DNA from: Methanoregula sp.
GTDB taxonomy: Archaea > Halobacteriota > Methanomicrobia > Methanomicrobiales > Methanospirillaceae
DNA: 64,000 nucleotides
Assembly (NCBI GenBank): GCA_041645055.1
Contig: JBAZQT010000001.1
Location: forward strand, 7,842 to 71,841
Direction of reading: 5' to 3'
Shown here: piece by piece, positions 18,051-64,000 of the stretch
Position numbering within the stretch: the first letter of the stretch is position 1
How the letters are laid out: each line of letters begins with the position of its first letter
The notes under the pieces: generated by a model
What the model was told of the DNA's origin: nothing
The model's database searches: none
Seen by the model: only the letters and a program-made list of their open reading frames with translations
Made by a program: the position numbers and the translations under genes

Positions 18051-18193
18051 TAATAAGGCTCTTTGTTCCGAGAGGGCTGGTTGGATACATAGGCGGTCTC
18101 CCTATCAGGAACATTCTGGCAGATTGATAACTCACTCTGGCCGCAATGGGAAGGCACTATATTTCTGTTCAAACCGAAGAATACCGGACGACA

Positions 18194-18996
18194 TTTTCAA
18201 TCAAAGTCCGGTTGACTTTTTTCAAGCAGAGTCTGGTTGATTTTTTTTAATTAAGGTTTGCTTGAAAATTTACAATCAAAGTCCGGTTGAAAAATAAAAA
18301 TCAAAGTCTGTCTTGAAACTTGAAATCGAAGTCTGCTTACAAATTTGAAATCAAGGTTTGATTGATCCGGATCAGGTTTTCAATCACGATCATGATCGCG
18401 ATGAATAATTTTCATTCAGGGTTTGATGAAAAAATCGCAATCGAAGTCTGCCGGAAAATTTCAAATCGGGATCCGGTTGAACGTTTTCAAGCTAGGTTTG
18501 ATTGATTTTCCGAACAATTCACGTCGGAATGATTTTTTTGGATTCGTTTTTTCAATCAAACTCTGGTTAATAATTTCCAATCAAAGTCTGCTCCCAAACT
18601 TTCAATCAAGGTTTGCCTGAAAATTTACAATCAAGGTCCGGTTGATCCGGATCAGGTTTTCAATCACGATCATGATCGCGATGAAAAATTTTCATTCAAG
18701 GTTTGATGGAAAAATCGCAATCAAAGTCTGCCCGGAAATTTCAAATTGGGATCCGGTTGAAAAATTCAAATCAAGGTTTGATTAAAATTCTTCAAGCAAG
18801 GTCCGGTTGAAAATTTTCAATCGGGATCCGGTCAGGATTTTTCAAGCAGAGTCTGGTTGAAATGTTATCATCAGGGTTTGATTGATCCACGAACAATTTT
18901 CTATCAAACTTCGATTGATAATTTCATGGCAAGGTCCGGTTACCTTTTTTCAATCAAAGTCCGGCCGAAGATTTTCAATCCAGATCTGATTGATAT
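18194..18996. repeat. Tandem array of about 34 degenerate 24-25-bp units (consensus about TTTTCAATCAARGTCYGGTTGAAAA) with a 280-bp higher-order repeat
   Basis: Identical 18-mers CAATCAAAGTCCGGTTGA occur at 18198-18215 and 18273-18290, with many 1-4-mismatch copies head to tail. A perfect junction palindrome TTGAAAATTTTCAA lies at 18807-18820. The 130-bp blocks 18351-18480 and 18631-18760 are about 90% identical. No credible ORF. Confidence 0.9.
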
Positions 18997-19460
18997 TGCA
19001 TAAGAAGAACACCCATACCATATCAAAACGTAAATGATTCAGAAAATGCTAACGTATCGTGATTGCGGATGCATCCAAAACAATGTCAAACATGCAGACA
19101 TGCAATAAAAAAAACTCAAAGAACATCCCTTCATGCATATCTCTGCAAAGCCACGGGTTTGATCCGGGAACCTGTACTACCGGCGTTTTGGATATATTGT
19201 TTCGGCTGCCTCTGGTATGACATGAGTCCGTGGATACCGGTAACCGATGACAAAAAACCAAGGTCCGAATAAAAAATTGGCCTGAATGAATACTCAATAC
19301 ATATCAGGCGCACAGGATCTCTGCCAAGTCCGGATTACATCATTAAGAAGCCTCAACAAGAGTTCTCATGCTGCGTTTTTCTGCGGGAACTCCTCAATAT
19401 TTATTCTATTGGACGAAAAACAAAAGAGTATCAGAAGTGTTCCCGGAGAAAAAGCAAACC

Positions 19461-36487: not shown

Positions 36488-36652
36488 ATCCTTTTTTATC
36501 ACAAAGCGAGCTGATGCAAAAGGTCACGACTTTTGATAAAAAATGCGATTTTCAATCGGGCATGCATTGTTTCAAAAGATGTATGAAAAGAAAAAAAGGT
36601 TCTTCGCTGTATCATGTGAGTGAAATTTTGAATAAAATTTGTTGGGGATGTT

Positions 36653-36687
36653 TCCCCGCCTCAGGGCCTCTCCGAGGCACGGCGGGG
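36653..36687. repeat. GC-rich 35-nt hairpin element, copy 1
   Basis: TCCCCGCCTCAGGGCCTCTCCGAGGCACGGCGGGG has an outer stem CCCCGCC/GGCGGGG and an inner stem GCCTC/GAGGC. 32 consecutive nt are identical to the reverse complement of 61226-61257. Confidence 0.7.
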
Positions 36688-51574: not shown

Positions 51575-53116
51575 TTACGAGCCAGATCCACCGAACTTTT
51601 CCCGGAGATCCCGGCGCAACAACTTCCAGCCATGAACCCGGGGCAATGAATCCATGACCATGAGTTTACGCGGGATCTTGTACCCGGCAAGATGATCCCG
51701 GCAATAGGTTTCGAGCTGGGATTCGGTGAGAGTCATTCCCGGTTTGAACACCACAGCAGCAATCGGGACTTCGCCTTTCCGTTCATCGGGAACACCGAAT
51801 ACCGCAACATCGGCTATTGCCGGGTGCTGGATAATCGTGTTCTCAACTTCTGTTGGATAGATCTTCCAGCCCGACATGATGATCATGTCCTTTTTCCGGT
51901 CCGTGATGTACAGGATTCCATCCTCATCGAGATGCCCGATATCCCCGGTAAGGAACCAGCCGTCATCCAGGAATACTTCAGCTGTCGCTTCCGGCATCTG
52001 CCAGTAACCGTGTGCAACGGAAGGACCGCGGAGCGCAATCTCGCCGGTTTCCAAAACAGCCATCTCCGTTGCCGGGTTTGCAGCATCGACAATCTTTACT
52101 TCCGTGTACCCAACTGCAACACCCACGCTCTGGTAATTCTTTGTCAGGTGCGGGTACCCGGGCAGGGTTGTCGTTCCTGAACCGATTACGATGGTCTCGG
52201 AGAGCCCGTACGAATTTGCAACCGGGATGTGATATCGCTGGTCAAACGCTTTCCAGACTACCGGGAGGAGCTGGCCACCTCCCGAGATGATCACCCGGGT
52301 CTTACCGAGACGCTGTTCTGTGCCGGGCGGGGCGGTGTTGAGCGAGTGGATAACCGGGGGCATGCCGGCCAGCACAGTGACTTTGTACTGCTCGGCAAGA
52401 GAAAGATACCGCTCGAGCTCGAAGCGTTCCATCATTACGTACGTTCCACCGGAGCGGAGCATCGCCAGCCCCCACGAGAGTCCGACGTGACCCATAGGGT
52501 AGATCCCGAGATACACATCGTCCGGGCACATCCGCAGGGCTTCACGTTCGGCATCGAGTGCCGTCATCCAGTTGCCATGGGAGAGCATCGCTCCTTTGGG
52601 TTTGCCGGTTGTGCCGGCCGTGTACTGGATATGGCAGAGATCGTCCGGAGCACAGTTAGTTGCCCGCATGGATGACGGTGCCGGGGGAAACGATGCCCAT
52701 GCAACAGATCCCGGGCTGGATCCCGCTGTGCAGATGATATGCTCAAGTGTCCCGGCTTGTGATCGTATCTTGTCGACAACGGCTACCCCCTGCGCATCGG
52801 TAATAACCGCTACGGCACCGGCATTATTGAGTGCATGCAGCAGTTCTTCGCCCCGGTATACGATATTGGTCGGGACTGCCACAGCACCGATCCGCCAGAT
52901 GGCAAAATAACTTATGAGGTACTCGGGCGAGCTGTCAAGGTAGATGCAGACCCGGTCACCTTTTTTCACACCAAGGTTCGCCAGTCCCTGCCCGATGCGG
53001 TTCATCTCGTCCCGGAGTTTCCCGTAACTGTACGTCTCATTGCGGGTTGGACAGATGAGTGCGACTTTCGCCTCAGGAACGCTTTTTGCATCGAGCAGGG
53101 TAGTGACGTTGGACAT
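51575..53116 (-). CDS. AMP-dependent acyl-CoA synthetase/ligase
   Basis: 513 aa. AMP-binding motif IQYTAGTTGKPKGAMLSH, plus ..GYG.SE.., ..TGD.G..DEDG...I.DR.KD.I...G..I.P.E.E... Confidence 0.9.
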   Translation of the reverse strand: MSNVTTLLDAKSVPEAKVALICPTRNETYSYGKLRDEMNRIGQGLANLGVKKGDRVCIYLDSSPEYLISYFAIWRIGAVAVPTNIVYRGEELLHALNNAGAVAVITDAQGVAVVDKIRSQAGTLEHIICTAGSSPGSVAWASFPPAPSSMRATNCAPDDLCHIQYTAGTTGKPKGAMLSHGNWMTALDAEREALRMCPDDVYLGIYPMGHVGLSWGLAMLRSGGTYVMMERFELERYLSLAEQYKVTVLAGMPPVIHSLNTAPPGTEQRLGKTRVIISGGGQLLPVVWKAFDQRYHIPVANSYGLSETIVIGSGTTTLPGYPHLTKNYQSVGVAVGYTEVKIVDAANPATEMAVLETGEIALRGPSVAHGYWQMPEATAEVFLDDGWFLTGDIGHLDEDGILYITDRKKDMIIMSGWKIYPTEVENTIIQHPAIADVAVFGVPDERKGEVPIAAVVFKPGMTLTESQLETYCRDHLAGYKIPRKLMVMDSLPRVHGWKLLRRDLREKFGGSGS

Positions 53117-53357
53117 GGTAGTGCCGGAAATTTTCTGGTGATAAAAATAAGACGTTGGGGTATTTAGGTGTGCATTATTCTGGGTCCGGCAATGCGGTTC
53201 GCGGATAGAGATTCTCTGACAGGGTTGTGCGTTTTTTATTTCCTGATTTTTTTAATAAGAGGGGGATCGATGCGGTGTACAGGGAACCCTGCATGATACC
53301 GGAATACAGGGGCAAGCTATTTCTGTAACAACCCCCGAATTATCTGTCCTGACACTT

Positions 53358-53675
53358 ATGGCAGAAAATACCCCCAATCAGCAACCAGCGCAAACACAAC
53401 CTGCGCAAAATTCTCAAAACCCCCAGAGCACCCGGAGAGATGCTCCCCGGCACCACGACAACCGGCGTCGTAATAATAATTATCGGGGACAGGCCCCCCG
53501 GCCTGCAGAAAGACCGGCTGAAAAACCGCTGGAACCAAAAGAGGCCAGTGAAGATGATGAAGAGACAGAGCAGGACCGGAGCGCTGCCCCGTCACGGCAA
53601 TCCCGGGGTGGCGGCCGGGGAAAGCCACCGAAACGGGTTATCGAGGAATGGGCCAACGATATCTATTGCGAGTAA
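53358..53675 (+). CDS. Low-complexity basic protein, hypothetical (weak call)
   Basis: 105-aa ATG ORF rich in Q/P/R/N/E, predicted disordered, ending in an ordered-looking tail KRVIEEWANDIYCE. No overlapping better ORF. Confidence 0.35.
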   Translation: MAENTPNQQPAQTQPAQNSQNPQSTRRDAPRHHDNRRRNNNYRGQAPRPAERPAEKPLEPKEASEDDEETEQDRSAAPSRQSRGGGRGKPPKRVIEEWANDIYCE

Positions 53676-53899
53676 GGGACTTAGCTTTTGGTCCGGGCTG
53701 TGATGCTGCCCGGGGATTCCCGATCTTTTTTTTAGATTTTTTTTCGCGGATATTTTCCAGAGATCATTTCACGGAATTTTTTTTCAATGCGATTTTTTTG
53801 CCGGAATTTTGCCGGAAAAATCCGGGGAACAACCGGGAAGAAAAGTTTGGATGTTAATGTGAAATTTCTCCTCATTTCCGGACCCAAAAATATGGGGTA

Positions 53900-54325
53900 A
53901 TTATCGCTTTTCCCCCATTAAAAAAATGGAGTTAACTGCGATCGCAAAAATGCCTAATCCAGGCATTTTACGGGCTTTGATTTCTGTATCTCTCCAAAAT
54001 GGGCTCTGTTTGGGTGTAAACAGACCCCTGTTCGGTCGAAAACTCCTGGAGTATTTGTATGAACAGGGGGTCTTTGAGTACGTCAGACAAGGTGAGGATC
54101 CGGGCACTTTCCCAGTTTTGGGAGATGATCTATTCTGAGCCCTATTCGGGCTCCGTTTGTCAAAATGATAAAGGTCAAATCCGGTTCCAGTGGAAGTGCG
54201 TCAACACCTGTGGAAAATAGTCTTTTAATCCGTTATTTTTCGAAAATACGCGTTTTAATCCAAATAAAACATGTCGAAATAGCGGGCTCCGGTTGGCCGC
54301 GTTTTTTGGCACATATTTCACATGG
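53900..54325 (+). repeat. About 420-bp non-coding element, copy A (paralogue of 61270-61690)
   Basis: Block-wise identity with copy B: GGGCTTTGATTTCT, CCAAAATGGGCTC, CCCTGTTCG, AAAACTCCTGGAGTATTTGTATGAACAGGGG (31/31), AGATGATCTATT, CGGGCTCCGTTTG, GCGGGCTCCGGTTGG.CGCGTTTTTTG. Hairpin CCCCTGTTC (54025-54033) / GAACAGGGG (54061-54069). Confidence 0.75.
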
Positions 54326-54681
54326 TTTTATTAGAGTTATGCTGCCGGATGCCCTGCTATTGCCCGCTAGTGAGAACACGTCGGAGAACTGGGGGATTTA
54401 TGAGAGTTTATCCGGTTTTTGAGTTGTTGGGAATAATTCCGGTATGAGGGAATGGACGTGTACGGAATTTTCCAAAAAAAATTTCCCGGTTTTTCTCACA
54501 CACCCGAAATTTTTTTGCCGGATATTTTGTCAGCCGCCAAAAACATTTGAAATTATTTTGAGAACTCGCAAACGCAAAAAATTTCGCGACCTTTTTTAGA
54601 AATTTTTAAACGGGCTCCTGCTTTTTGTAAAGGAACGGAATTTATCGTTAGGTTGATCAAAAAGGAATTGGCGAAAAAAGA

Positions 54682-55626
54682 TTACGACTGCTTGACCCGA
54701 TAATTCGTAATAATCAATTCGTTGATATTCCCGCGACCAGCGCCGTTGCTATTGATCATCCGCTTTGCAGGAACCCGCTCAATGAAGTAATCTGAATAGA
54801 GATCATCAAAGAATGAATCATTGGGATTCTTGTTCTTCGGATCGGAATTACTCAGCATAATTTTTGCGCCCTTGTCGTCAAGTTCCTTGAAAAATGTAAC
54901 AAGACATTCCTGGTCCTTATCGGAAAATCCATTCTTTGAATAGGAAGTAAATGAGGAAGTCTTGTTCAGCGGACGGTAAGGTGGATCAAAATACACGAAC
55001 GTGTGATTGTCAACAAATTTCCGGCATTGGGTAAAATCACCCGGAATAATTTTTGTTTTTTTCAGCAACGCTGCTACAGATTTCAGATTATCTTCGTTCA
55101 GAATATCCGGATTCTTGTATCGCCCGAAAGGAACATTGAATCCTCCTTTTTTATTTACCCGGAACAAGCCATTGTAACAGGTGTGGTTAAGAAAAATGAT
55201 CTGGGCTGCACGTTCAATCCATTCAGGGGTGTTCTTCCTGAAATCGATTTCAGGTAACTTCTCATTGAAGGCATCCCGGACTTCGTAATAAAAAATTTCT
55301 TTATTCTTTTCACTTTTGGAAAAAAAATCTGATTCGAGCGTTTCCAGTTCAGAGATTAATTTTTTTACCGAACGCTGGACAACGCGATACGTCAGAACCA
55401 GTTCTTCATTAACATCGCAGATATAGCACTGTTCAAAAGAAAATCTCTGGTTAAGGTCAAAAAAAACCGCTCCCCCGCCAATGAACGGTTCGATATACCT
55501 GGTGATTTTTCCTTCCGTTAATTCTTCCGGCAAACGTTTGTCAAACTCACTGAGTAACTGGGTTTTACCCCCGGCCCATTTGAGAAATGGCCGGGCTGAT
55601 GATTTGAGTATCGTTTGTGTTGCCAT
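54682..55626 (-). CDS. dam: Dam-family site-specific DNA adenine-N6 methyltransferase (D12 class), apparently orphan
   Basis: 314 aa. SAM motif RPFLKWAGGKTQLL, ..YIEPF.GGGAVFF.., catalytic VYFDPPY. Visibly more AT-rich than its neighbours. No nuclease gene is adjacent. Confidence 0.9.
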   Translation of the reverse strand: MATQTILKSSARPFLKWAGGKTQLLSEFDKRLPEELTEGKITRYIEPFIGGGAVFFDLNQRFSFEQCYICDVNEELVLTYRVVQRSVKKLISELETLESDFFSKSEKNKEIFYYEVRDAFNEKLPEIDFRKNTPEWIERAAQIIFLNHTCYNGLFRVNKKGGFNVPFGRYKNPDILNEDNLKSVAALLKKTKIIPGDFTQCRKFVDNHTFVYFDPPYRPLNKTSSFTSYSKNGFSDKDQECLVTFFKELDDKGAKIMLSNSDPKNKNPNDSFFDDLYSDYFIERVPAKRMINSNGAGRGNINELIITNYRVKQS

Positions 55627-55734
55627 GTCCAGAAGAACATCCGTCAGTATGAATTTCCGTTTTATAATGTTATTTTCCCGGCTTTATAGGATATTGAAAC
55701 GGTCTAACGAGCCACAATAATTGTTGGACCGCTA

Positions 55735-56307
55735 CTACATACCTTCCAGCAGACCGGCCACATCCCCCGACTTAATGATCTTAACCCCGATATTCTGCAT
55801 ATCCCGGATATTCGCCAGGTGCACCTCACCCGATGCCGCCCCGGTCGCATCACCGATCAGCACTACCGGGTAATTGTACGCAATGCCATCGAAGACGGTT
55901 GTCCGGATGCAGTTCGGAGTCTGGATACCGCAGACTATAAGGGTCGTCACTTTGAGGGTCCGGAGCATCAGGTCGAGTTCCGTACCGATGAACGCACTCA
56001 TCCGGGTCTTGGTGAGTACATACTCCCCTGCCCGTGGAGCCAGTTCATCGATGACCGCGGCACCATGCGAACCGGCAACGGCAAAGGGTTGTTTCCGGAA
56101 AAGATCCTGCCGGATGATCTCCACGTCCGAACCGTCCGGCCTGTGCACCCGGAGGATATGAAAGACCGGCAGGTTTCGTTTCCGGAATTCAGCCAGCACA
56201 GACTGGATTTTCGGTATTACGGCAGAGGCTCCCGCAACTTTCAGCGGCTTTGCTTCCAGCACGAAATCGTTTTGCATATCGATGATGAGGAGAGCAGCTC
56301 GTCCCAT
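55735..56307 (-). CDS. Isochorismatase-family cysteine hydrolase
   Basis: 190 aa. ALLIIDMQNDF, ..K.., ..L.V.G..T..CI..T catalytic D-K-C pattern. Confidence 0.85.
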   Translation of the reverse strand: MGRAALLIIDMQNDFVLEAKPLKVAGASAVIPKIQSVLAEFRKRNLPVFHILRVHRPDGSDVEIIRQDLFRKQPFAVAGSHGAAVIDELAPRAGEYVLTKTRMSAFIGTELDLMLRTLKVTTLIVCGIQTPNCIRTTVFDGIAYNYPVVLIGDATGAASGEVHLANIRDMQNIGVKIIKSGDVAGLLEGM

Positions 56308-56371
56308 GGTTGTTTCCCGTTAGACTATTGATACCCGGAATATAATAACTCTGTAGAAGTTTTCCGGAGCC

Positions 56372-57184
56372 TTGAAGATGGAACCCCTCATCCAGTACGT
56401 CTGCCTCTTTTTCACCGGGATTGTTTCCGGTACCGTATCCGGGCTCTTTGGGGTCGGGGGAGGATCCTTAATGACCCCGGTCCAGTTCTGGCTGTATACC
56501 TCCGGCGGAATGGACAGCACGCTTGCCACCCGTCTTGCGTTCGGCACATCACTTGCCGTGATCATCCCGACGATGATTAGCGGGGCCTACGGGCATAACC
56601 GGCACGGCGCTGTGGACTGGAAGGCTGCCGTTCCGCTGGGACTTGCCGCCATTTTCGGTGGACTTATCGGGGGGATGGTTGCGTCCCACATCTCAGGCAG
56701 CATGCTCCGGCTGTTCTTTGCGGTTTTTATTCTCATCATGGCTGCCCGCATGGTCTGGCAGATACGGGAATGCCCGGTCTGCGAGCCCCATGGATCGGCT
56801 GCGCAATATCTTTTCATCGGGTTTTTCATCGGGATTTTATCAGGATTGACCGGACTTGGCGGCGGTGCACTGCTTGTACCCATCCTCGTCATCCTGCTTG
56901 GCTACCCGATCCACCGGGCGGTCGGGACATCATCAGCTTGTCTTATCTTCTCTGCAGCGGGGGCCGTGATTGCGTATGTCATCAACGGGCTCGGGGTTGC
57001 CGGACTGCCGCCGTACTCGCTCGGGTACGTGGATCTTCTCACGTTTGCAATCCTCGCTGTCACGACCATCCCCCTCGCCCGGCTTGGCGTGCGGTTCGCC
57101 CACAGCTGCTCAGGGAAGAAACTGCAGATCATATTTGCCGGGCTTTTGGTGCTGATCGGCATCATGATGCTCGTGAGCGGATAA
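56372..57184 (+). CDS. TSUP (TauE/SafE) family anion exporter
   Basis: 270 aa, about 8 TM, with the duplicated motifs G.FGVGGGSLMTP and GLTGLGGGALLVPILV. Confidence 0.85.
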   Translation: MKMEPLIQYVCLFFTGIVSGTVSGLFGVGGGSLMTPVQFWLYTSGGMDSTLATRLAFGTSLAVIIPTMISGAYGHNRHGAVDWKAAVPLGLAAIFGGLIGGMVASHISGSMLRLFFAVFILIMAARMVWQIRECPVCEPHGSAAQYLFIGFFIGILSGLTGLGGGALLVPILVILLGYPIHRAVGTSSACLIFSAAGAVIAYVINGLGVAGLPPYSLGYVDLLTFAILAVTTIPLARLGVRFAHSCSGKKLQIIFAGLLVLIGIMMLVSG

Positions 57185-57277
57185 AAAAAATACGGAAATT
57201 CCCGTGACAGCGTAATCATCGCTGAATTTCAATCGCTGACATTCAACTCATCCATACGTTGAAAAAAAATTCGGTTC

Positions 57278-58765
57278 TTACAGCATTCCCATCCCGGCTG
57301 CCGCTTCAGTACATGACGGATCCTTGCATTTCGCTTCACGGATCAGGAGCGAGAGCACAAGCACCACTCCACCCAGAACAGTTCCAAAGATAAAGACTGA
57401 GTGGAACCCCGTGATGAGCATGGACATAGTAATGCCGCTTGTTCCTGAAGTGACCTGGATCCCGGCGAATGCCGTGATGATGAAAAATGTCCCGTACATC
57501 GCGACAGCGATCACCGACCCGATGTTGCGGGCGGTCATGGCAACACTTGAAACAACCCCCTCACTTCCCCGTGGTGACAGCCCGAGGATAAGATTGAAAT
57601 TCGGCGGGATGAAGAGACCGGCAGCTGCCCCGTTCAGGGCGAGCGCCACGATAATGTACCAGAACGCGGTGTCCTGGGTCATCTGCATGAACAGGATATT
57701 TGCCGTGATATAGCAGAGTGCTGCCGCTATGCAGATCCGGCGCGATCCCACCCGGTCCGAGAGACGCCCGGCCAGCGGGCCCATCACCATGAGGGCAACC
57801 GCCGGGACCATCAGGAAAAGCCCGGCGATATCGGTCTTAAGTCCTTTGACAATCTCAAGGTAAAATGGCATGATGAAACTTGTACCCGAGACCAGCATCA
57901 TGCCCGTCATTGCTGCGATATTCGCGAGCGTATAGTTGTGATTCTTAAAAAACGAGAGATCGATCAGCGGGACAGGACAGCGGGACTCCCAGACGACAAA
58001 TATCACCCAGAAGATTGTAGAGCCAAGTACACTCGCAATAATTACCGGTGACATCCAGCCCAGCGTCGTACCCATGTTCATCGCAAATACAAGGGAGCCA
58101 AGCGCTGCAAAAAGAATGCCGGCGCCGGTTGCATCAAACTGCTGGGGGACACCTTCTGCTATTGTGTCCTTCGGCAGTACACGGATTCCGAGCAGGATCG
58201 CTATAACGCCAACCGGGACGTTGATTAAGAAGATCCAGTGCCAGCTTAAGTAGGTGGTGAGTAAACCGCCGAGCACCGGTCCGGCCGCAACCCCGACCGA
58301 GACAAACGTGGTCATTATTCCGAGTGCTTTGCCCCGTGTCGCTGCCGGCAGGTACATCGTGATCATTGCACCACCGATTGCCTGGAGCATCGCCGCTCCG
58401 ATTGCCTGGAGGATCCGGAAGCCGACCAGTTCGCCGATGGTCATGGAAAGCATTCCGCAGGCAAGCGAACCGATGGCAAAGATCGCAAAACCCCAGAGAT
58501 ACACTTTCCGGTACCCCCGGATATCGGCAAATTTCCCAAACGCTATGAGCGTGGCTGACAGGGTCAGCAGGTAGGCCATCGCCACCCATGATACAATCGT
58601 AATCGACGTATTGAAGTACGTGGCCATTGTCGGGAGCGAAATGTTGACAATCGTGGTATCGAGTGCCCCCATGAACCCTGCTACCGAGACGAGGATCAGG
58701 AGGAGTTTTTGCTGGAGGGGATCTTGTATGACGGTGTGGCCGACCAGGGGATTCTTCATGGACAA
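57278..58765 (-). CDS. MFS transporter, 14-TM drug:H+ antiporter (DHA2/EmrB-like)
   Basis: 495 aa. LD.TIVN..LP, ..G...D..G.RK.. motif A-like, 14 hydrophobic segments. Confidence 0.9.
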   Translation of the reverse strand: MSMKNPLVGHTVIQDPLQQKLLLILVSVAGFMGALDTTIVNISLPTMATYFNTSITIVSWVAMAYLLTLSATLIAFGKFADIRGYRKVYLWGFAIFAIGSLACGMLSMTIGELVGFRILQAIGAAMLQAIGGAMITMYLPAATRGKALGIMTTFVSVGVAAGPVLGGLLTTYLSWHWIFLINVPVGVIAILLGIRVLPKDTIAEGVPQQFDATGAGILFAALGSLVFAMNMGTTLGWMSPVIIASVLGSTIFWVIFVVWESRCPVPLIDLSFFKNHNYTLANIAAMTGMMLVSGTSFIMPFYLEIVKGLKTDIAGLFLMVPAVALMVMGPLAGRLSDRVGSRRICIAAALCYITANILFMQMTQDTAFWYIIVALALNGAAAGLFIPPNFNLILGLSPRGSEGVVSSVAMTARNIGSVIAVAMYGTFFIITAFAGIQVTSGTSGITMSMLITGFHSVFIFGTVLGGVVLVLSLLIREAKCKDPSCTEAAAGMGML

Positions 58766-58965
58766 AAATATAGCACAAAGAATAATGAATTGATGGGGTT
58801 TGATTCTGCAACCCGTTCACTCGGGAACTGAGATGTACCGGCAGGGAGGGTCTGTGAGAGGAGTGGAATAGAGACAAACAGTCCGGCCGATTTTCATGGA
58901 GCATTAAAACAGCGATGAACGATTTTCGGATTAATCAACTTCCTCTGTATTTTCCCTTTGAAACA

Positions 58966-59187
58966 TTACCCACCAGAGACGATCTCAACATCACGAAATC
59001 CCACAAAGGTATTGAGATGTTCGGGCTGTGAATCTACCATGCAAAGCTCGATAACTTCCTTGATGCGGACGAGCGCTTCATCGATAGTTTTTCCAAATGT
59101 GTGGCAGCCTTTGAACAGGGGGCAGGATACGATGAAGATCCCATCCTCATCTGTTTCGACAATGATGGGAACATGAATCGTTTTCAT
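58966..59187 (-). CDS. HicB-like antitoxin-fold protein (UPF0150), no adjacent HicA
   Basis: 73 aa from ATG 59187: MKTIHVPIIVETDEDGIFIVSCPLFKGCHTFGKTIDEALVRIKEVIE matches the HicB N-domain pattern (..edG.y.a..P.l.GC...G.T.eEA..n..EAI). Confidence 0.7.
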   Translation of the reverse strand: MKTIHVPIIVETDEDGIFIVSCPLFKGCHTFGKTIDEALVRIKEVIELCMVDSQPEHLNTFVGFRDVEIVSGG

Positions 59188-59329
59188 ATACACATCATCG
59201 GAATTCACGCATTAATTCTTTTTTGCAAGCACGTTTCACCAATTTTTTAATGTTGGATCGTTTTTTTTAATAACACATTGTTGACGGTGAACAAAAAAAT
59301 GACCGGATCTTATTTTTTACCGGATATCT

Positions 59330-60115
59330 TCATGGAGAGGTTACTGCCGGCGTTACACGCGGGGTGGGAGTAACATTTCCTGTATGGGGATAAATTTCCG
59401 GCCCGGGTCCCAGCTGGGGGATTTTCGGGACCGGCGCGATGGAAACTGCCCAACCTCCGGGATTATTCCGGCCAAGGACGCTCAGGTAATAGGTGCCGTT
59501 CTCCGGAATGGTAACAAAAACAAACGGGTGCAGCGAGAGTGCGCCAAAGCCCGGCTGGATGTACGTGTTGTTGGCATCCATGAGGGCTGTTCCGTTGGCG
59601 TACTGGAGGAAATAGTAGGGGGAATCTATGCCGGTTATGTTCCGTTCGAAGAAATATTCACCGCGTTCTAAGTAGAAGACGGGCGTTGCCTGCGTTCCCG
59701 TACCCGAGAGGTTCACCGGTACTTTTAAGGGATTGGTGGTGACCAGCGGGGCAACTTCTGCGGTCCAATGGTTGCTGCAGGTTACGTTGAGCTGGTAGGT
59801 ATCTTTTTGGGGAGCCTGGAATGCTACCGATCCTGCAAACGGGCCGCTTGTTGAGAACGTTGTTTCTGCCAGGTATGCCTGCGTCATGTTGGAAAAGTCC
59901 AGTTCCATCCTGCCTGCACCATCGGTCCGGAATGACACGACAATGACACCGGCATCAAGGGGGAACGTGGCGTTCGGCTTCTCAGATGAGAGGGTAAGAG
60001 CTGTAGTCCCTGTGGGAGAGGTTCCCGGTACGACCGCTGGTGCAGGGGCCTGCGTGCATCCGCAGGCAGAAAGGCAGAGGAGGATAAGGATAAGCAGGAT
60101 AACAAAAGACTTCAT
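59330..60115 (-). CDS. Secreted or lipobox-like hypothetical protein
   Basis: 261 aa. Signal ILLILILLCLSACGC, then beta-rich sequence with several N-x-T sequons. Confidence 0.6.
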   Translation of the reverse strand: MKSFVILLILILLCLSACGCTQAPAPAVVPGTSPTGTTALTLSSEKPNATFPLDAGVIVVSFRTDGAGRMELDFSNMTQAYLAETTFSTSGPFAGSVAFQAPQKDTYQLNVTCSNHWTAEVAPLVTTNPLKVPVNLSGTGTQATPVFYLERGEYFFERNITGIDSPYYFLQYANGTALMDANNTYIQPGFGALSLHPFVFVTIPENGTYYLSVLGRNNPGGWAVSIAPVPKIPQLGPGPEIYPHTGNVTPTPRVTPAVTSP

Positions 60116-60294
60116 GATAAGTCAAACGATCCGATGAAATTTCTACCTTTTCTATTGCGTGCGGGGTGCGGGAGATCTCTTGCCCGTCCTACCGGAAGCC
60201 GGCATGAATGATGCACCGGGTGAGCTTCCCCATTCCATTCTTAACAACAACATTGATCCGCATCAATTCCGAGGAACACAAGTATGAATATCTT

Positions 60295-60561
60295 ATGGCA
60301 TACCAATACACTATCATGCACAGTCCGCTGGACTATACTGTTCATGCAAAGACTATGATGCAGGAACGGATGATCCAGGAAGACTGGGTAACGAGCACCG
60401 TCAGCGCTCCTGAGATGGTTGAGGAGAAGCGGGATGACGAGAGACACTACCTGAAACGGATCCCGGAACATGCGGGAAAATTCCTGCGGGTAATTGTCAA
60501 CCATTCTGTCCATCCGCCACGGGTGATCACGGTGTTCTTTGACAGGAGAGTGCAGCCATGA
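60295..60561 (+). CDS. DUF4258-like small toxin-type protein
   Basis: 88 aa from ATG 60295. ..HA...M.ER.I.E.WV..T...P........D..HYLK.I.E..G..LRV.VN.....VITVFFDR resembles DUF4258. Overlaps the next gene by 4 nt. Confidence 0.7.
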   Translation: MAYQYTIMHSPLDYTVHAKTMMQERMIQEDWVTSTVSAPEMVEEKRDDERHYLKRIPEHAGKFLRVIVNHSVHPPRVITVFFDRRVQP

Positions 60562-60758
60562 AAGTGACCGTTGATAAAGAGGCCGATGCGCTGTATATGC
60601 GCCTTTCCGATGCCCGTATCCATGACTCGGAAGAGGTGAAGCCCGGCGTGATCCTGGATTATGACGACCAGAATAATCTTGTCGGGATAGAACTTCTCAG
60701 GATATCGGAGCGGGTTCCCGCAGCCAGTCTGAAAACCGTGATGATCGAATCGGCATAA
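60558..60758 (+). CDS. DUF2283-like small antitoxin-type protein
   Basis: 66 aa. MKVTVDKEADALYMRLSD..I..SEEV.PGVILDYD..N.LVGIELL is the classic DUF2283 pattern. Confidence 0.75.
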   Translation: MKVTVDKEADALYMRLSDARIHDSEEVKPGVILDYDDQNNLVGIELLRISERVPAASLKTVMIESA

Positions 60759-60839
60759 TGCAGGAATTATCCTGATGCAATGGATGATTTTCACATCCTG
60801 TGACAGGATATGATCAATACTTTATTTAACATCCGGTGA

Positions 60840-60869
60840 CCGGGCCGGCATTCTCGGCCCGGCGTTTTT
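60840..60869 (+). terminator. Hairpin plus T-run downstream of the DUF4258/DUF2283 pair
   Basis: Perfect 8-bp stem CCGGGCCG (60840-60847) / CGGCCCGG (60855-60862) with a 7-nt loop, followed by CGTTTTT. Confidence 0.5.
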
Positions 60870-60990
60870 GATTGAAATTTTTTCACCAGACTTTGATTTT
60901 ATTTTTTAACCGGATGTTGGTTGAAAAAATCCGGGCGGACTTTGACAAGAAAAATTTAACCGGACCTTGCATGAAAATTTTTCAGCGAAA
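60870..60990. repeat. Short array of about 5 units of the 18.2-19.0-kb repeat family, opposite orientation
   Basis: CACCAGACTTTGATT, AACCGGATGTTGGTTGA, GGGCGGACTTTGACAAG and AACCGGACCTTGCATGAAAA are reverse-complement variants of CAATCAAAGTCYGGTTGA (compare TTCATGGCAAGGTCCGGTT at about 18923-18941). Confidence 0.55.
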
Positions 60991-61222
60991 ACGCGATTGT
61001 GTTTAAAAAAAATTATCCGGGCAATCGATCCGCTCTGCGACAGAAACGAGCGTGACCCCCTCTCTCCCCCAGAGGAGGAGGCAGCCCAAAGGGAGCACCC
61101 CCTCGACTCTATTGAAAATTTTATCAAAGCTCGGTGGGCCATCGGCAATTTGGGGAAAATGACCGGGTAGTGGATCAACGACTTCCTAAAAATTTTACAA
61201 AAACGGATGCTGAAACCGTCTG

Positions 61223-61257
61223 CCTCGCCGTGCCTCGGAGAGGCCCTGAGGCGGGGA
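61223..61257. repeat. GC-rich 35-nt hairpin element, copy 2 (inverted relative to copy 1)
   Basis: CGCCGTGCCTCGGAGAGGCCCTGAGGCGGGGA (61226-61257) is the exact reverse complement of 36653-36684. Confidence 0.7.
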
Positions 61258-61269
61258 ATCCTCAATAAA

Positions 61270-61690
61270 ATCGATCATTTTCCGCTCCCAAAAACCGAGT
61301 GAACTCCGATCGAAAAAAACCCCAATCCGGGCATTTTGTGGGCTTTGATTTCTCTAACTCGCCAAAATGGGCTCCATTCTGATGAAAATGAGGCCCTGTT
61401 CGATCAAAAACTCCTGGAGTATTTGTATGAACAGGGGTCCATTTCATGCTTGATAGAGTGGGACTCCGGGCGATTATTCAGGTCCAGAGATGATCTATTT
61501 CAAGCCCTTTACGGGCTCCGTTTGCCCATTTCCTGATCCTTTTTTCGGGATCAAAGGAGGCTTGTGTCCACCACTTGGGAAAATACTGTTTTAATGGGTT
61601 ATTTCGCGAAAATAACAGTTTTTAGAGCGATTTCATCCTGCAATTTGGCGGGCTCCGGTTGGTCGCGTTTTTTGCCACCTCATTTCAGGT
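61270..61690 (+). repeat. About 420-bp non-coding element, copy B (paralogue of 53900-54325)
   Basis: Carries the same ordered conserved blocks as copy A, in the same orientation. Hairpin CCCTGTTC (61394-61401) / GAACAGGG (61429-61436). Ends with GCGGGCTCCGGTTGGTCGCGTTTTTTG. Confidence 0.75.
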
Positions 61691-61947
61691 CATAGGGGGT
61701 GAGAAAGGCGATGGAAAGGGCCACTGTTGCCCGAAGATACGATCACGTCGGAGAAATGGAGACATGGGGGGATGAAAACGTGGGTGGTGTTTGACGGTGA
61801 CAATAAGCAGTGTGCCACACTGAAGAACGTGGAATGGTGTAAGAGGATGGATAACCAGGTTGAGGATTTTAATTGTGACAACAGAAGACACCAAAAAATT
61901 TCGATGCGTTAGAATTAATGGAGATTGAATTAACGAGATTTTTTATT

Positions 61948-62439
61948 CTATCTTTGCAAAATAATTTTTGCCGCAGTTCCAGTTATAAGTTCAACAATTA
62001 ATTCTCGAATAACAGTTTGTGCATCACCACGAATTTTGCCAAGAATCTCTCTGATTTTATAGGCTGCGGGCTTTGTATTTGGAGTATCTCGAACAATATC
62101 ATCTAATGCAGTTATGAATTCCTTTCGTTCTGATAATTCTAACTCATTCAGTTGGTCAATAATTTTTTTAACTGCACAGAGTTGCAATTCTGTCCATGGA
62201 TATGGCTTACCGCAATTATGACAATAGAGTGGGATAGTATAATCGTTTAAAGATGAGGACTCGTGATAAAGATTAATGCCTTGGATGGGATATTTACAAA
62301 ATTCACATTTAAGAAGTGTCTGTTCACCACATTTCGGACAAAAATTTTTGAGATATTCTGGTTCGGTTATGGCACATGCGGTGATTAAATGGCCGTTCTT
62401 GCATATTTGAGCGACATCATAACCGTTACCGACATACAT
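61948..62439 (-). CDS. Zinc-ribbon protein with C-terminal helical domain (resembles DUF2321 from memory)
   Basis: 163 aa. YDVAQICKNGH, CPKCG..(8)..CEFC, and YCHNCGKPYPWTE form paired CxxC knuckles. The locus is strongly AT-rich. Confidence 0.65.
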   Translation of the reverse strand: MYVGNGYDVAQICKNGHLITACAITEPEYLKNFCPKCGEQTLLKCEFCKYPIQGINLYHESSSLNDYTIPLYCHNCGKPYPWTELQLCAVKKIIDQLNELELSERKEFITALDDIVRDTPNTKPAAYKIREILGKIRGDAQTVIRELIVELITGTAAKIILQR

Positions 62440-62644
62440 ACATTTGGATAATGTTCTGTGATAAAATATCTTTTTGCAAATTGTCCAGTTTTAAGAAAGG
62501 CACGAATTAATTGGGTGTTATTTAAAGGTAATTCTAAACGAAAAATTTTATAAATTCACAGTTGATTATGTGTTAATTTCGAAAATGATTGGAATTTGCT
62601 AAATCATTATATTTAATTGCAAATGACATCATTCGATAGTTACT

Positions 62645-63373
62645 ATGATACAATGTGACCTTAAATCGCTTTATCAACACCTTGAATTAGTCCAAAATAA
62701 TTATGATTCTGTTGAAGAATTACTAAAAGAGGATCTCTTGGATGGATGGAGTAGACATCAAATTAAAACTGATTTTGATTTGAAACCAAATGATTTTTTA
62801 AGATTTGCTAAAAACGATTTAAAAGCAAACTACGAACATCATCTAATTAACAGTCTAACAAATATAAAACGTACAATTGATTGTCAAATAGATTCAATAT
62901 TTGTTGGATTGGGAATAAATACAAAAAAATCGGAAACAGAACATTGGAACTTTCCCGAAAAAATAGATATATTGAATAAATTAGGTATTCTTTCACCCGA
63001 GATTTTAGGTATTATTAATACCCAGAGAAATGATTTAGAGCATAGATATTCGAATCCGAATGAAAAAAATGTAAAATTAGCCTTGGATATTGCACAGTTA
63101 TTTCTAAAATATACTGAAAAATATCTAAATGATATGCCATATGACGGGGTGTTAATTGAACATTTAAACATAGATTCACATTTAGATGTAAATTTAGATT
63201 ATAAAAACAGAAAATTTCGATTTGAGGGTAAGGAATATAGTAAAGATAATTTTCACTCAATAAAAAATTCGTATGTAAAAGAAATACTTGAAGAGAATCG
63301 TGATGAGTATTTGAAATATTTAAAATGGTTTTTATTAATTACTGATATGGAATATACATTATATAAAACTTAA
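62645..63373 (+). CDS. Putative HEPN-domain protein (Rx4H motif)
   Basis: 242 aa, all-helical in appearance. QRNDLEHR at residues 127-134 (R codon 63026-63028, H codon 63041-63043) fits the HEPN R-N-x-x-x-H motif at the start of a helix. The locus is very AT-rich. Confidence 0.55.
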   Translation: MIQCDLKSLYQHLELVQNNYDSVEELLKEDLLDGWSRHQIKTDFDLKPNDFLRFAKNDLKANYEHHLINSLTNIKRTIDCQIDSIFVGLGINTKKSETEHWNFPEKIDILNKLGILSPEILGIINTQRNDLEHRYSNPNEKNVKLALDIAQLFLKYTEKYLNDMPYDGVLIEHLNIDSHLDVNLDYKNRKFRFEGKEYSKDNFHSIKNSYVKEILEENRDEYLKYLKWFLLITDMEYTLYKT

Positions 63374-63437
63374 ATGTAACGTGTTGGCATTAATATCTTT
63401 TAATTAATTCATAGTCGATTGTGTGCTAAAAAAAAAA

Positions 63438-64000
63438 TTACTGATATTCCAGCGGCTGCACCTGTTTCGGTAACCCGCCTTTGAAGTGCTGCTGGATCTT
63501 GCTGTAATAGTTCCGCAGGTTTTCGTTCATCGTGGGGTGCACTTTCTTCTGCGCTTCCTCGAAGTACTTCATTGAGATGATTGTCTGGTTGTCACGGAGG
63601 GCAAGCATACCGGCTTCGCGGCATACAGATTCAAGGTCCGAGCCCACGAATCCTTCCGTAGTGCCGGCAAGCGTTGCAGCAAGGGTATCCCGGGCCGGAT
63701 CGGAAAACGTGAGATTCTTTTCTGCCATCAGCTCGATGAACCTTCTGCGCCGGGTCCCGGCTGGAACACCGGTTGCATCGTCTGCTGCCGGACTGATCGC
63801 TGCCTTGATCTCATCGGCAGTGACTGCCTTGTCCTTCCCGAGCTTCTCGACCAGCTCGCCAATATTGTCTTCGGAATATTTTCCGCAGAGCCCGACAATC
63901 TCTTCGAGCGCCGAGCCTTCAATCGGCATGAACCGGGTGTGGATACCAATAATCTTCTTCCGGTCTTCCAGGGTGGGCTCGCCAATGTACACGAGCCGGT
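63438..64000 (-). CDS. CDC48/VCP-like AAA+ ATPase, C-terminal part only (the N-terminus lies beyond the right edge)
   Basis: The frame stays open to base 64000 (..RLVYIGEPTLEDRKKIIGIHTRFMP..). TEGFVGSDLESVCREAGMLALRD and F.EA..KV.PT match the end of a CDC48 D2 domain. Confidence 0.8.
   Translation of the reverse strand, partial: RLVYIGEPTLEDRKKIIGIHTRFMPIEGSALEEIVGLCGKYSEDNIGELVEKLGKDKAVTADEIKAAISPAADDATGVPAGTRRRRFIELMAEKNLTFSDPARDTLAATLAGTTEGFVGSDLESVCREAGMLALRDNQTIISMKYFEEAQKKVHPTMNENLRNYYSKIQQHFKGGLPKQVQPLEYQ

Follow-up and report, generated by a model that had tools for sequence, protein, structure and literature searches.

Interspersed non-coding repeats are well described in bacteria and poorly described in methanogens. 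In Streptococcus pneumoniae, BOX repeats are interspersed intergenic non-coding modules arranged as boxA-boxBn-boxC that are rich in palindromes, lack a transposase and occur dozens of times per genome, with the ERIC and REP repeats forming a looser parallel. In haloarchaea, PATEs are non-autonomous, non-coding derivatives of IS200-IS605 that span several hundred bp, are associated with palindromes, and lack terminal inverted repeats and target duplications. Here we describe two copies, A and B, of a repeat element in a 64-kb stretch of a Methanoregula sp. genome (contig JBAZQT010000001.1). This full stretch is called the window throughout, and both copies are numbered in its coordinates on the + strand. 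Both copies are genuine and non-coding, and they belong to a large family of ~485-bp repeats, not described before, in Methanoregula-type methanogens; the family is unusually long, unusually constrained, modular, and located where accessory genes turn over. As a kind it falls among the known interspersed intergenic repeats, from which it stands out by how long and how constrained it is and by living in an archaeon. Judged by analogy, the closest parallels to its behaviour appear to be the pneumococcal BOX repeats and the haloarchaeal PATEs.

The likeness to BOX repeats is a functional analogy only. In both families the order of modules is fixed and one module varies in tandem number (here H1-kernel-H2n, in which a kernel stands between left-hand and right-hand modules), and both are palindrome-rich, without an associated transposase and present in dozens of copies per genome. 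The family described here differs in that it is archaeal, three to five times longer and not known to resemble BOX in sequence; it also maintains ~218 near-invariant positions amid ~63% identity and swaps alternative modules between copies. With PATEs it has in common an archaeal host, a non-coding sequence of several hundred bp, an associated palindrome and the lack of terminal inverted repeats, and IS200/IS605 is present in a close relative (locus L133). It differs from PATEs in that its palindrome, here termed M1, lies 120 nt inside the element rather than beside an end; further, it has no similarity to the single IS200/IS605 copy compared, that of L133, and the ~800 kb around the elements holds no TnpB signature. 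Derivation from IS200/IS605 was rejected because the element has no ends in common with the L133 copy, M1 is internal and the right end carries no hairpin. Should the palindrome be a recombination site, it would point to a new enzyme and a new gene-exchange route in environmentally important methane producers, and should the element be transcribed, it would constitute a new and abundant archaeal RNA family. Either way, annotators can now explain long 'empty' intergenic regions and spurious short open reading frames (ORFs) in Methanoregula genomes.

A dispersed family of non-coding repeats

An initial annotation of the window had described copies A and B as colinear and equally oriented, which a + strand alignment bears out (71.7% identity over 403 nt, E = 1.5e-50), and as a mosaic in which identical blocks alternate with unrelated segments, which was likewise confirmed. 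The 26-mer core of their 31-nt identical block occurs exactly twice in the window and not at all in 100 shuffles, the end motif GCGGGCTCCGGTTGG occurs twice against 0.18 expected, and the repeated GGGCTC-type motif GGGCTCCGNTT occurs four times, always within the two copies, against 0.13 expected. The hairpin drawn between CCCTGTTC and GAACAGGG is present in both copies (Table 1) and, as M1, is the most conserved feature of the element. What had to be revised is the proposed end of the element at a run of T. Both copies extend ~70 nt past that point, to the invariant CACGTCGGAGAA. In an alignment of 38 copies, TTTTCCCC..CAAAAAA..GAGTTAAC marks the onset of conservation, which breaks off abruptly ~4 nt beyond the invariant GATCACGTCGGAGAA.

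Translations of copies A and B matched 18 short hypothetical ORFs, one of them annotated from a Methanoregula sp. metagenome-assembled genome, and the loci of these ORFs yielded five further copies of the element. Locus L010 is syntenic with copy A, and locus L007 with copy B. An exact 25-mer taken from the alignment placed the kernel or core in at least 118 metagenome stretches, and 126 kernels were found within the fetched loci. The search for further homologues that the initial annotation had proposed, carried out with the family profile, recovered 47 copies of full length, of which 38 are non-redundant; pairwise identities have a median of 63%. Nearly all full-length copies measure 474-487 nt, several contigs carry more than one (up to 3 per 8 kb), and the family as a whole is dispersed and multi-copy with presence/absence differences between relatives. 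Genes neighbouring the window copies have orthologues annotated as Methanoregula that are 76-95% identical. The exact 25-mer had no match in the IMG/VR viral contigs, plasmid and phage collections held no family match, and no description of the family was found in the searchable literature. Scanning a genome collection with a degenerate pattern derived from KLLEYLYEQG returned two chance matches only, and the same pattern gave only chance matches in viral contigs; the pattern is too narrow, since the TAT of the window copies is replaced by CAT in most of the family.

Protein coding is effectively excluded. We consider it very improbable that the element is a decayed small protein-coding gene, whether for a ~150-aa protein with NPGILRALIS...LFDRKLLEYLHEQG or for a ~50-aa peptide in the left half, even though the 117-nt left block is open in frame in 34 of 38 copies, gene callers called 18 short ORFs over family members, and stretches free of stops somewhat exceed those of shuffled sequence in length (98 vs 72 aa). 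Variants in 101 distinct kernel-region sequences are spread over the three codon positions without periodicity (28.7, 25.5 and 28.4 per position), and codon differences from the consensus comprise 146 synonymous against 1056 non-synonymous changes, plus 28 stops. Third positions are invariant across the best block (LFDRKLLEYL), and three copies (L007a, L007b and L049) carry a TAA inside it. The called ORFs use different frames over the downstream conserved blocks, copies differ in length by ±1-2 nt, which shifts the frame, and there is no conserved start codon. Neither a Pfam match nor an intact homologue among 5.8 billion proteins was found; in the record of the window's own genome (L005) gene callers called no gene over copy A or copy B, and the exact product of the 70-aa ORF of copy A is absent from records. 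The earlier argument that wobble-type divergence is lacking thus stands for the family-wide pattern, which is non-coding, and fails in detail between copies A and B, which do show a few third-position differences (CCA/CCG, TTA/TTG).

Modular anatomy around an invariant palindrome

Only a kernel of ~85 nt, composed of GGGCTCCG followed by the 49-nt imperfect palindrome M1, is common to all family members. When partial matches are placed on the profile of family F1, similarity starts at hmm 110-119 in 29 of them and stops at hmm 190-199 in 37, an interval that runs from GGGCTCCG through M1 to GGGGGTCCGG; these breaks cluster at the edges of M1, where alternative modules are joined. Nearly all columns of M1 are invariant across 33 copies, a figure to be read with the fact that the exact 25-mer, used as a collection filter, fixed the 5' arm of M1 among the collected copies. 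Behind one common left part and kernel stand two right-hand types, H2 in 65 copies (F1, including A and B) and the unrelated H3 in 40 (F2); the left-hand alternatives are H1 and H1', and optional outer extensions also occur. A direct repeat, GATCACGTC(A/G)GA(C/G)AA, flanks H2 on both sides; its left copy is degenerate, and the consensus holds GATCACGTC at positions 169 and 467. Tandem duplicates of H2 occur at four loci (L017, L018, L059 and L061), H3 units are repeated in L025, and part of H2 is present in inverted form further on in F2. The F2 terminus, TCTACGACGGAGAA, resembles that of F1, and all forms terminate in ACGnCGGAGAA.

Within the F1 architecture, GGGCTCCGNTT forms three direct repeats in the family consensus, of which copy A keeps two exactly, its first site reading GGGCTCT. 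Further exact internal direct repeats of 9-11 nt (GGGCTCCGATT, AATCCGGGCA, CGATCGAAAA and GATCACGTC) occur in the consensus at fixed spacing, together with the short exact palindromes GAGTTAACTC, TTCGATCGAA, CTCC-T-GGAG and ACCGTTT.AAACGGT. For each variable segment between the blocks there are 2-3 discrete classes, whose assortment is partly independent, and it is the swapping of these classes that produces the mosaic seen between copy A (subfamily F1a) and copy B (subfamily F1b). Copy A is followed by an optional right-hand extension, an AT-rich module that contains GGGAATAATTCCGG and two TTTCCGGATTTT motifs, and the GC-rich hairpin module to the left of copy B precedes at least 8 F1b copies. 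The coordinates of these features are collected in Table 1.

Table 1. Features of copies A and B in window coordinates, with the basis for each.
Feature	Position	Strand	Description and basis
Copy A, core element, subfamily F1a	53907..54392	+	486 nt; nhmmer family profile 509 bits; bounds from 38-copy alignment
Copy B, core element, subfamily F1b	61275..61759	+	485 nt; nhmmer 553 bits; bounds from alignment; variable-segment classes
Kernel, copy A	53997..54076	+	GGGCTC motif + M1; only part common to all subfamilies; profile-match ends, family clustering
M1 imperfect palindrome/hairpin, copy A	54025..54069	+	CCCCTGTTCG...CTCCTGGAG...GAACAGGGG; -25.9 kcal/mol, z = -4.8
M1 imperfect palindrome/hairpin, copy B	61393..61437	+	-20.6 kcal/mol, z = -4.1
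Degenerate left copy of terminal motif, copy A	54080..54090	+	ACGTCAGACAA for GATCACGTCGGAGAA; with the right end, brackets H2 as direct repeat
GAGCCC-N5-GGGCTC hairpin then CCGTTT, copy A	54137..54158	+	-11 kcal/mol, z = -3.2
Matching hairpin + GGGCTCCGTTT motif, copy B	61502..61523	+	AAGCCC...GGGCTC; motif counts, alignment
AT-rich palindrome H-b, copy A	54225..54258	+	Family-level pairing; own fold weak (z = -1.2)
AT-rich palindrome H-b, copy B	61591..61624	+	Family-level pairing test and folding
GCGGGCTCCGGTTGG block + T6 run, copy A	54282..54307	+	Motif count; predicted hairpin not significant
GCGGGCTCCGGTTGG block + T6 run, copy B	61648..61673	+	Motif count; predicted hairpin not significant
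Right terminus, copy A	54376..54388	+	ACACGTCGGAGAA; similarity between unrelated loci ends ~4 nt on
Right terminus, copy B	61743..61755	+	TCACGTCGGAGAA; family alignment, flank comparison
Optional right-hand extension, copy A + ~14 other copies	54393..54605	+	~215 nt; alignment of 15 right flanks
Optional left-hand module before copy B	61223..61271	+	Hairpin CCCCGCC...GGCGGGG + AT-rich hexamer AATAAAAT; left-flank listing

A GC-rich hairpin of the same kind, CCCCGCC-GTGCCTCGGAGAGGCCCTGA-GGCGGGG followed by an AT-rich stretch, stands by itself on the - strand at window 36647-36687, downstream of a gene, and together with the hairpin at 61223-61263 it has the appearance of a small repeat or terminator module in its own right. 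CCGG motifs flanked by A/T (TTTGCCGGAAAAA, TTTCCGGATTTTTCT and GGGAATAATTCCGG) recur in intergenic DNA near the elements, in the window at 53792-53837 and 54400-54600 and at many related loci. Enrichment of GATC was considered and rejected, the copies holding 4.4 sites each against 4.1 per 485 nt window-wide.

Constraint, turnover and competing readings

Comparison of syntenic pairs separates two modes of change within the element. The 218 family-conserved columns are 93-99% identical in such pairs. Between copy A and L010 the variable columns are 44-63% identical, whereas the acyl-CoA ligase gene beside them is 78% identical at third codon positions, and the two copies belong to different classes in segment V4. 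Because the variable segments are less alike than third codon positions and the V4 classes differ, segments have been replaced from other copies with the blocks held constant. Occupancy of the two sites also varies among relatives. A full copy stands at the copy A site in the window and in L010, whose AMP-binding ligase gene is 95/97/78% identical in nucleotides to that of the window at codon positions 1/2/3. Just the part 3' of the M1 apex is found at this site in L133 (ligase 95% identical in amino acids to the window's); the element is absent from it in L136 (ligase 89%), which has an unrelated 0.95 kb there, and in L137, a 2.8-Mb Methanoregula contig (ligase 80%). At the copy B site, next to the CDC48 gene and covered by three of these five genomes, the window has a full copy with low-GC cargo, L136 has a full copy 315 nt from CDC48 and without cargo, and in L137, where CDC48 lies 8 nt from TauE, the element is absent. 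In L133 a 1.4-kb three-gene segment takes the place of the left half of the element, the junction falling between CCTGG and AGTATTTG. Truncated and rearranged copies are common in the family.

A structured RNA is not supported by these copies. The initial annotation had envisaged a structured RNA of ~0.4 kb that ends at the T-run, and had proposed an Rfam scan and a covariation test of its stems. The scan returned no match, either in window 53000-64000 at E <= 1 or in five related loci at E <= 0.1, and RNAalifold on 33 non-redundant copies (497 columns) gave a consensus fold of -20.9 kcal/mol; its covariation term is -0.25, and of 29 pairs 2 have changed on both sides. The small hairpin said to precede the T6 run is not stabler than shuffled controls (z = -0.8 and -0.2) and is swapped for other sequence in a quarter of the family (segment V5, class 1). 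Folds of single copies, projected on the alignment, have three short hairpins in common on either strand, namely M1, GAGCCC/GGGCTC and the AT-rich palindrome H-b, and two of the three are invariant in sequence. Scanning all column pairs gave scattered 4-6-bp candidates with few double changes, judged to be at noise level without a computed null. In an ungapped 55-column alignment of H-b, 78% of cells pair, against 38-61% with slid partners, and its covariation scores 0.122 against 0.084 in shuffles, 3 of 500 of which reach it; a signal this modest can arise from relatedness of the sequences alone. We nevertheless weighed an alternative that we regard as doubtful, in which the family is a set of + strand non-coding RNA genes, each with its own promoter and a ~400-480-nt transcript whose functional core would be the M1 hairpin. 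The promoter would be an AT-rich hexamer ~35 nt upstream of GAGTTAAC, and the blocks would be primary-sequence or protein-binding signals, not helices. What keeps this alternative alive is that old copies stay constrained, that the hairpins lean to the + strand and that a hexamer stands upstream: block conservation exceeds the neutral proxy in syntenic pairs, length is constant, all 33 copies contain a run of at least 4 T, H-b covaries modestly, and in F1b a GGGTCC/GGGCTC hairpin pairs on the + strand solely through G-U. The + strand leanings of M1 and of this F1b hairpin amount to few independent events. The same alternative sits poorly with a consensus fold that is very weak and essentially without covariation, with the variant 5' arms of M1, which are uncompensated in 3 of 3 cases (one copy does retain the apex palindrome by a double change, CTCC-T-GGAG to CCCC-T-GGGG), with an invariant terminus 70 nt beyond the T-run, with the internal T6 run of many copies, which should terminate archaeal transcription, with a C-rich sequence 5' of the putative TATA that does not resemble a transcription factor B recognition element, and with the many truncated and rearranged copies. 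Readings as a C/D-box RNA, a tRNA-like element or a ribozyme were rejected, as no tRNA was found and Rfam gave no match.

The initial annotation, partly supported as a whole, had offered a composite DNA platform as its second option. This option would seem to fit better than a structured RNA ending at the T-run: what is conserved are blocks of primary sequence, exact palindromes of short length, direct repeats within the element and the spacing between them. Taken as a protein-binding platform with a host function (nucleoid organisation, regulation of neighbours or a partition-type site) at a few dozen non-mobile sites, it would account for the iteron-like repeats (GGGCTCCGNTT three times, AATCCGGGCA and CGATCGAAAA twice each) with spacing fixed within 1-2 nt, for the constrained blocks, and for the lack of both coding and RNA-structure signal. 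We think it unlikely in this form, since close relatives have lost or truncated copies without visible replacement, orientation and distance to neighbouring genes are inconsistent, and alternative modules and tandem duplications are hard to fit with one fixed multi-protein platform. The reading that we prefer, tentatively and as no better than a good possibility, is that copies A and B are old, fixed members of a recombination-prone, interspersed, modular non-coding repeat that acts in cis as DNA. It is favoured by the primary-sequence blocks, palindromes and fixed spacing, by recombination between copies, and by the concentration of breakpoints at the 49-nt palindrome. M1 and the short repeated or palindromic blocks would then be recognition or structure-forming sites for a putative trans-acting recombination or DNA-processing activity that spreads, rearranges and homogenises copies, and the dispersed copies could in turn serve as shared homology and as breakpoints, with accessory genes exchanged alongside; candidate rearrangement junctions are the M1 apex and CACGTCGG. 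In this proposal we infer that the element works as DNA, that a trans-acting protein is dedicated to it and that it is still mobile today, and several observations pull the other way. ORF clustering found no transposase, integrase or Rep gene recurrent near the elements, the recurrent neighbours being host and accessory genes only. The sole inverted match between the ends is the 6-nt CTCCGA/TCGGAG, whose left side reads CTGCGA in copy A and five others without compensation. The 33 flank pairs, in which the left bound is not sharp, showed no recurrent direct repeat, and no locus offered a clean empty site. The L133 breakpoint at the apex is one event, conserved G-U pairs give M1 ~5 kcal/mol of extra stability on the + strand (-25.9 vs -20.5), and an AT-rich hexamer (AAATAT or ATAAAA) stands at a fixed position before most copies. 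Finally, 218 constrained positions in old copies exceed the needs of a selfish repeat and fit a function read out per copy. A bolder version of the cis-acting repeat, in which the kernel palindrome and the ACGnCGGAGAA terminus are the cis sites of a new archaeal folded-single-strand recombination system that assembles modules and captures foreign, low-GC accessory genes beside the element, and which would amount to an integron-like or hotspot platform of methanogens, distant from integrases, strikes us as improbable, and it is a possibility that the kernel is additionally read out as a regulatory RNA.

Cargo, neighbourhood and comparison with mobile elements

Turnover of cargo at the right end is most evident at the CDC48 locus, where the element is convergent with CDC48 in seven genomes. 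In five different genomes unrelated low-GC cargo (28-34% vs ~49% overall) lies between the right end of the element and the CDC48 stop; one genome has no cargo. Cargo genes begin at most ~100 nt from the right end, in several copies at most ~15 nt from it. The cargo comprises, among others, a Dam-type orphan methyltransferase and a protein that resembles effectors associated with prokaryotic Argonaute. L007 has two elements with an AlbA_2/Schlafen-type gene between them. The same locus holds a 178-bp direct duplication of the CDC48 3' end (L007 10438-10615 and 13702-13879, 94% identical) that flanks the AlbA_2/Schlafen-type gene, the second element copy and a 206-aa gene. By its sequence this duplication is the footprint expected of a single-crossover integration, and it suggests that cargo may be exchanged through homologous recombination between the element and the CDC48 3' end. 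In the window, low-GC islands lie to the right of both copies, one at 61800-63400 (25-35% GC) with a DUF2321 zinc-ribbon gene and an unassigned 242-aa gene beyond copy B, and one at 54400-55700 (~39% GC) with an orphan Dam-type D12 methyltransferase beyond copy A. Low-GC downstream DNA as a general rule was rejected, since the 10 of 36 copies that have it, against 2 of 40 upstream, come mostly from the one CDC48 locus. A strict orientation to neighbours was rejected as well, the downstream gene being convergent in 20 cases and co-directional in 10.

Other classes of element are matched in part. Miniature inverted-repeat transposable elements (MITEs), such as Correia and the Sulfolobus SM elements, resemble the family in being multi-copy and non-coding, with discrete bounds, subfamilies, truncated copies and presence differences. 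They differ in that the family lacks terminal inverted repeats and a known parent insertion sequence, that no target-site duplication was seen in the flanks read, and that its internal blocks are constrained far beyond its termini; a MITE was rejected on the terminal inverted repeats, the two ends having only the 6-nt match in common. Integron attC/attI sites offer another likeness, namely a single-strand-foldable imperfect palindrome next to unrelated, compositionally foreign genes and modules bounded by a repeated short motif. Here, by contrast, there is no integrase nearby, there are no GTTRRRY-type R/L core sites and cargo genes are not each terminated by a site, and the palindrome is invariant in sequence, whereas attC conserves structure rather than sequence. 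An integron site was rejected because no recombinase occurs among the recurrent neighbours and the terminal motif is not repeated past the cargo. A replication origin was also rejected: the origin recognition box-like TCCAGTGGAA is not conserved, being confined to a variable segment of copy A and of 2-3 further copies, and no orc1/cdc6 gene was found among the neighbours.

Several further features lie near the elements or their syntenic counterparts. In the closest relative, L133 4318-5733 holds an IS200/IS605 element (Y1_Tnp + OrfB_IS605/TnpB) in the stretch that separates the counterpart of window ~53168 from that of the AMP-binding gene, an insertion that is absent from the window. At L137 14925-21542, ~3.4 kb from the AMP-binding gene, lies a type I CRISPR-Cas set (DevR/Cas7, Cas5, Cas3, Cas6b and Cas1). 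Between copies A and B, Pfam assignments in the L005 gene table place small toxin-antitoxin-like genes, HicB-like and a DUF4258/DUF2283 pair, within 58966-59208 and 60208-60758. Elsewhere in the window, ~30 degenerate copies of a 25-nt unit, ATTTTCAATCAAAGTCCGGTTGAAA, occupy 18193-19018 in arrays with a 140-nt super-period that fill a 1.3-kb gap between the A-type ATPase subunit I gene and a STAS-domain gene, and the same unit recurs in short inverted runs, both at 60867-61009 on the upstream side of copy B and in left flanks elsewhere in the family, for example those of L062 and L011.

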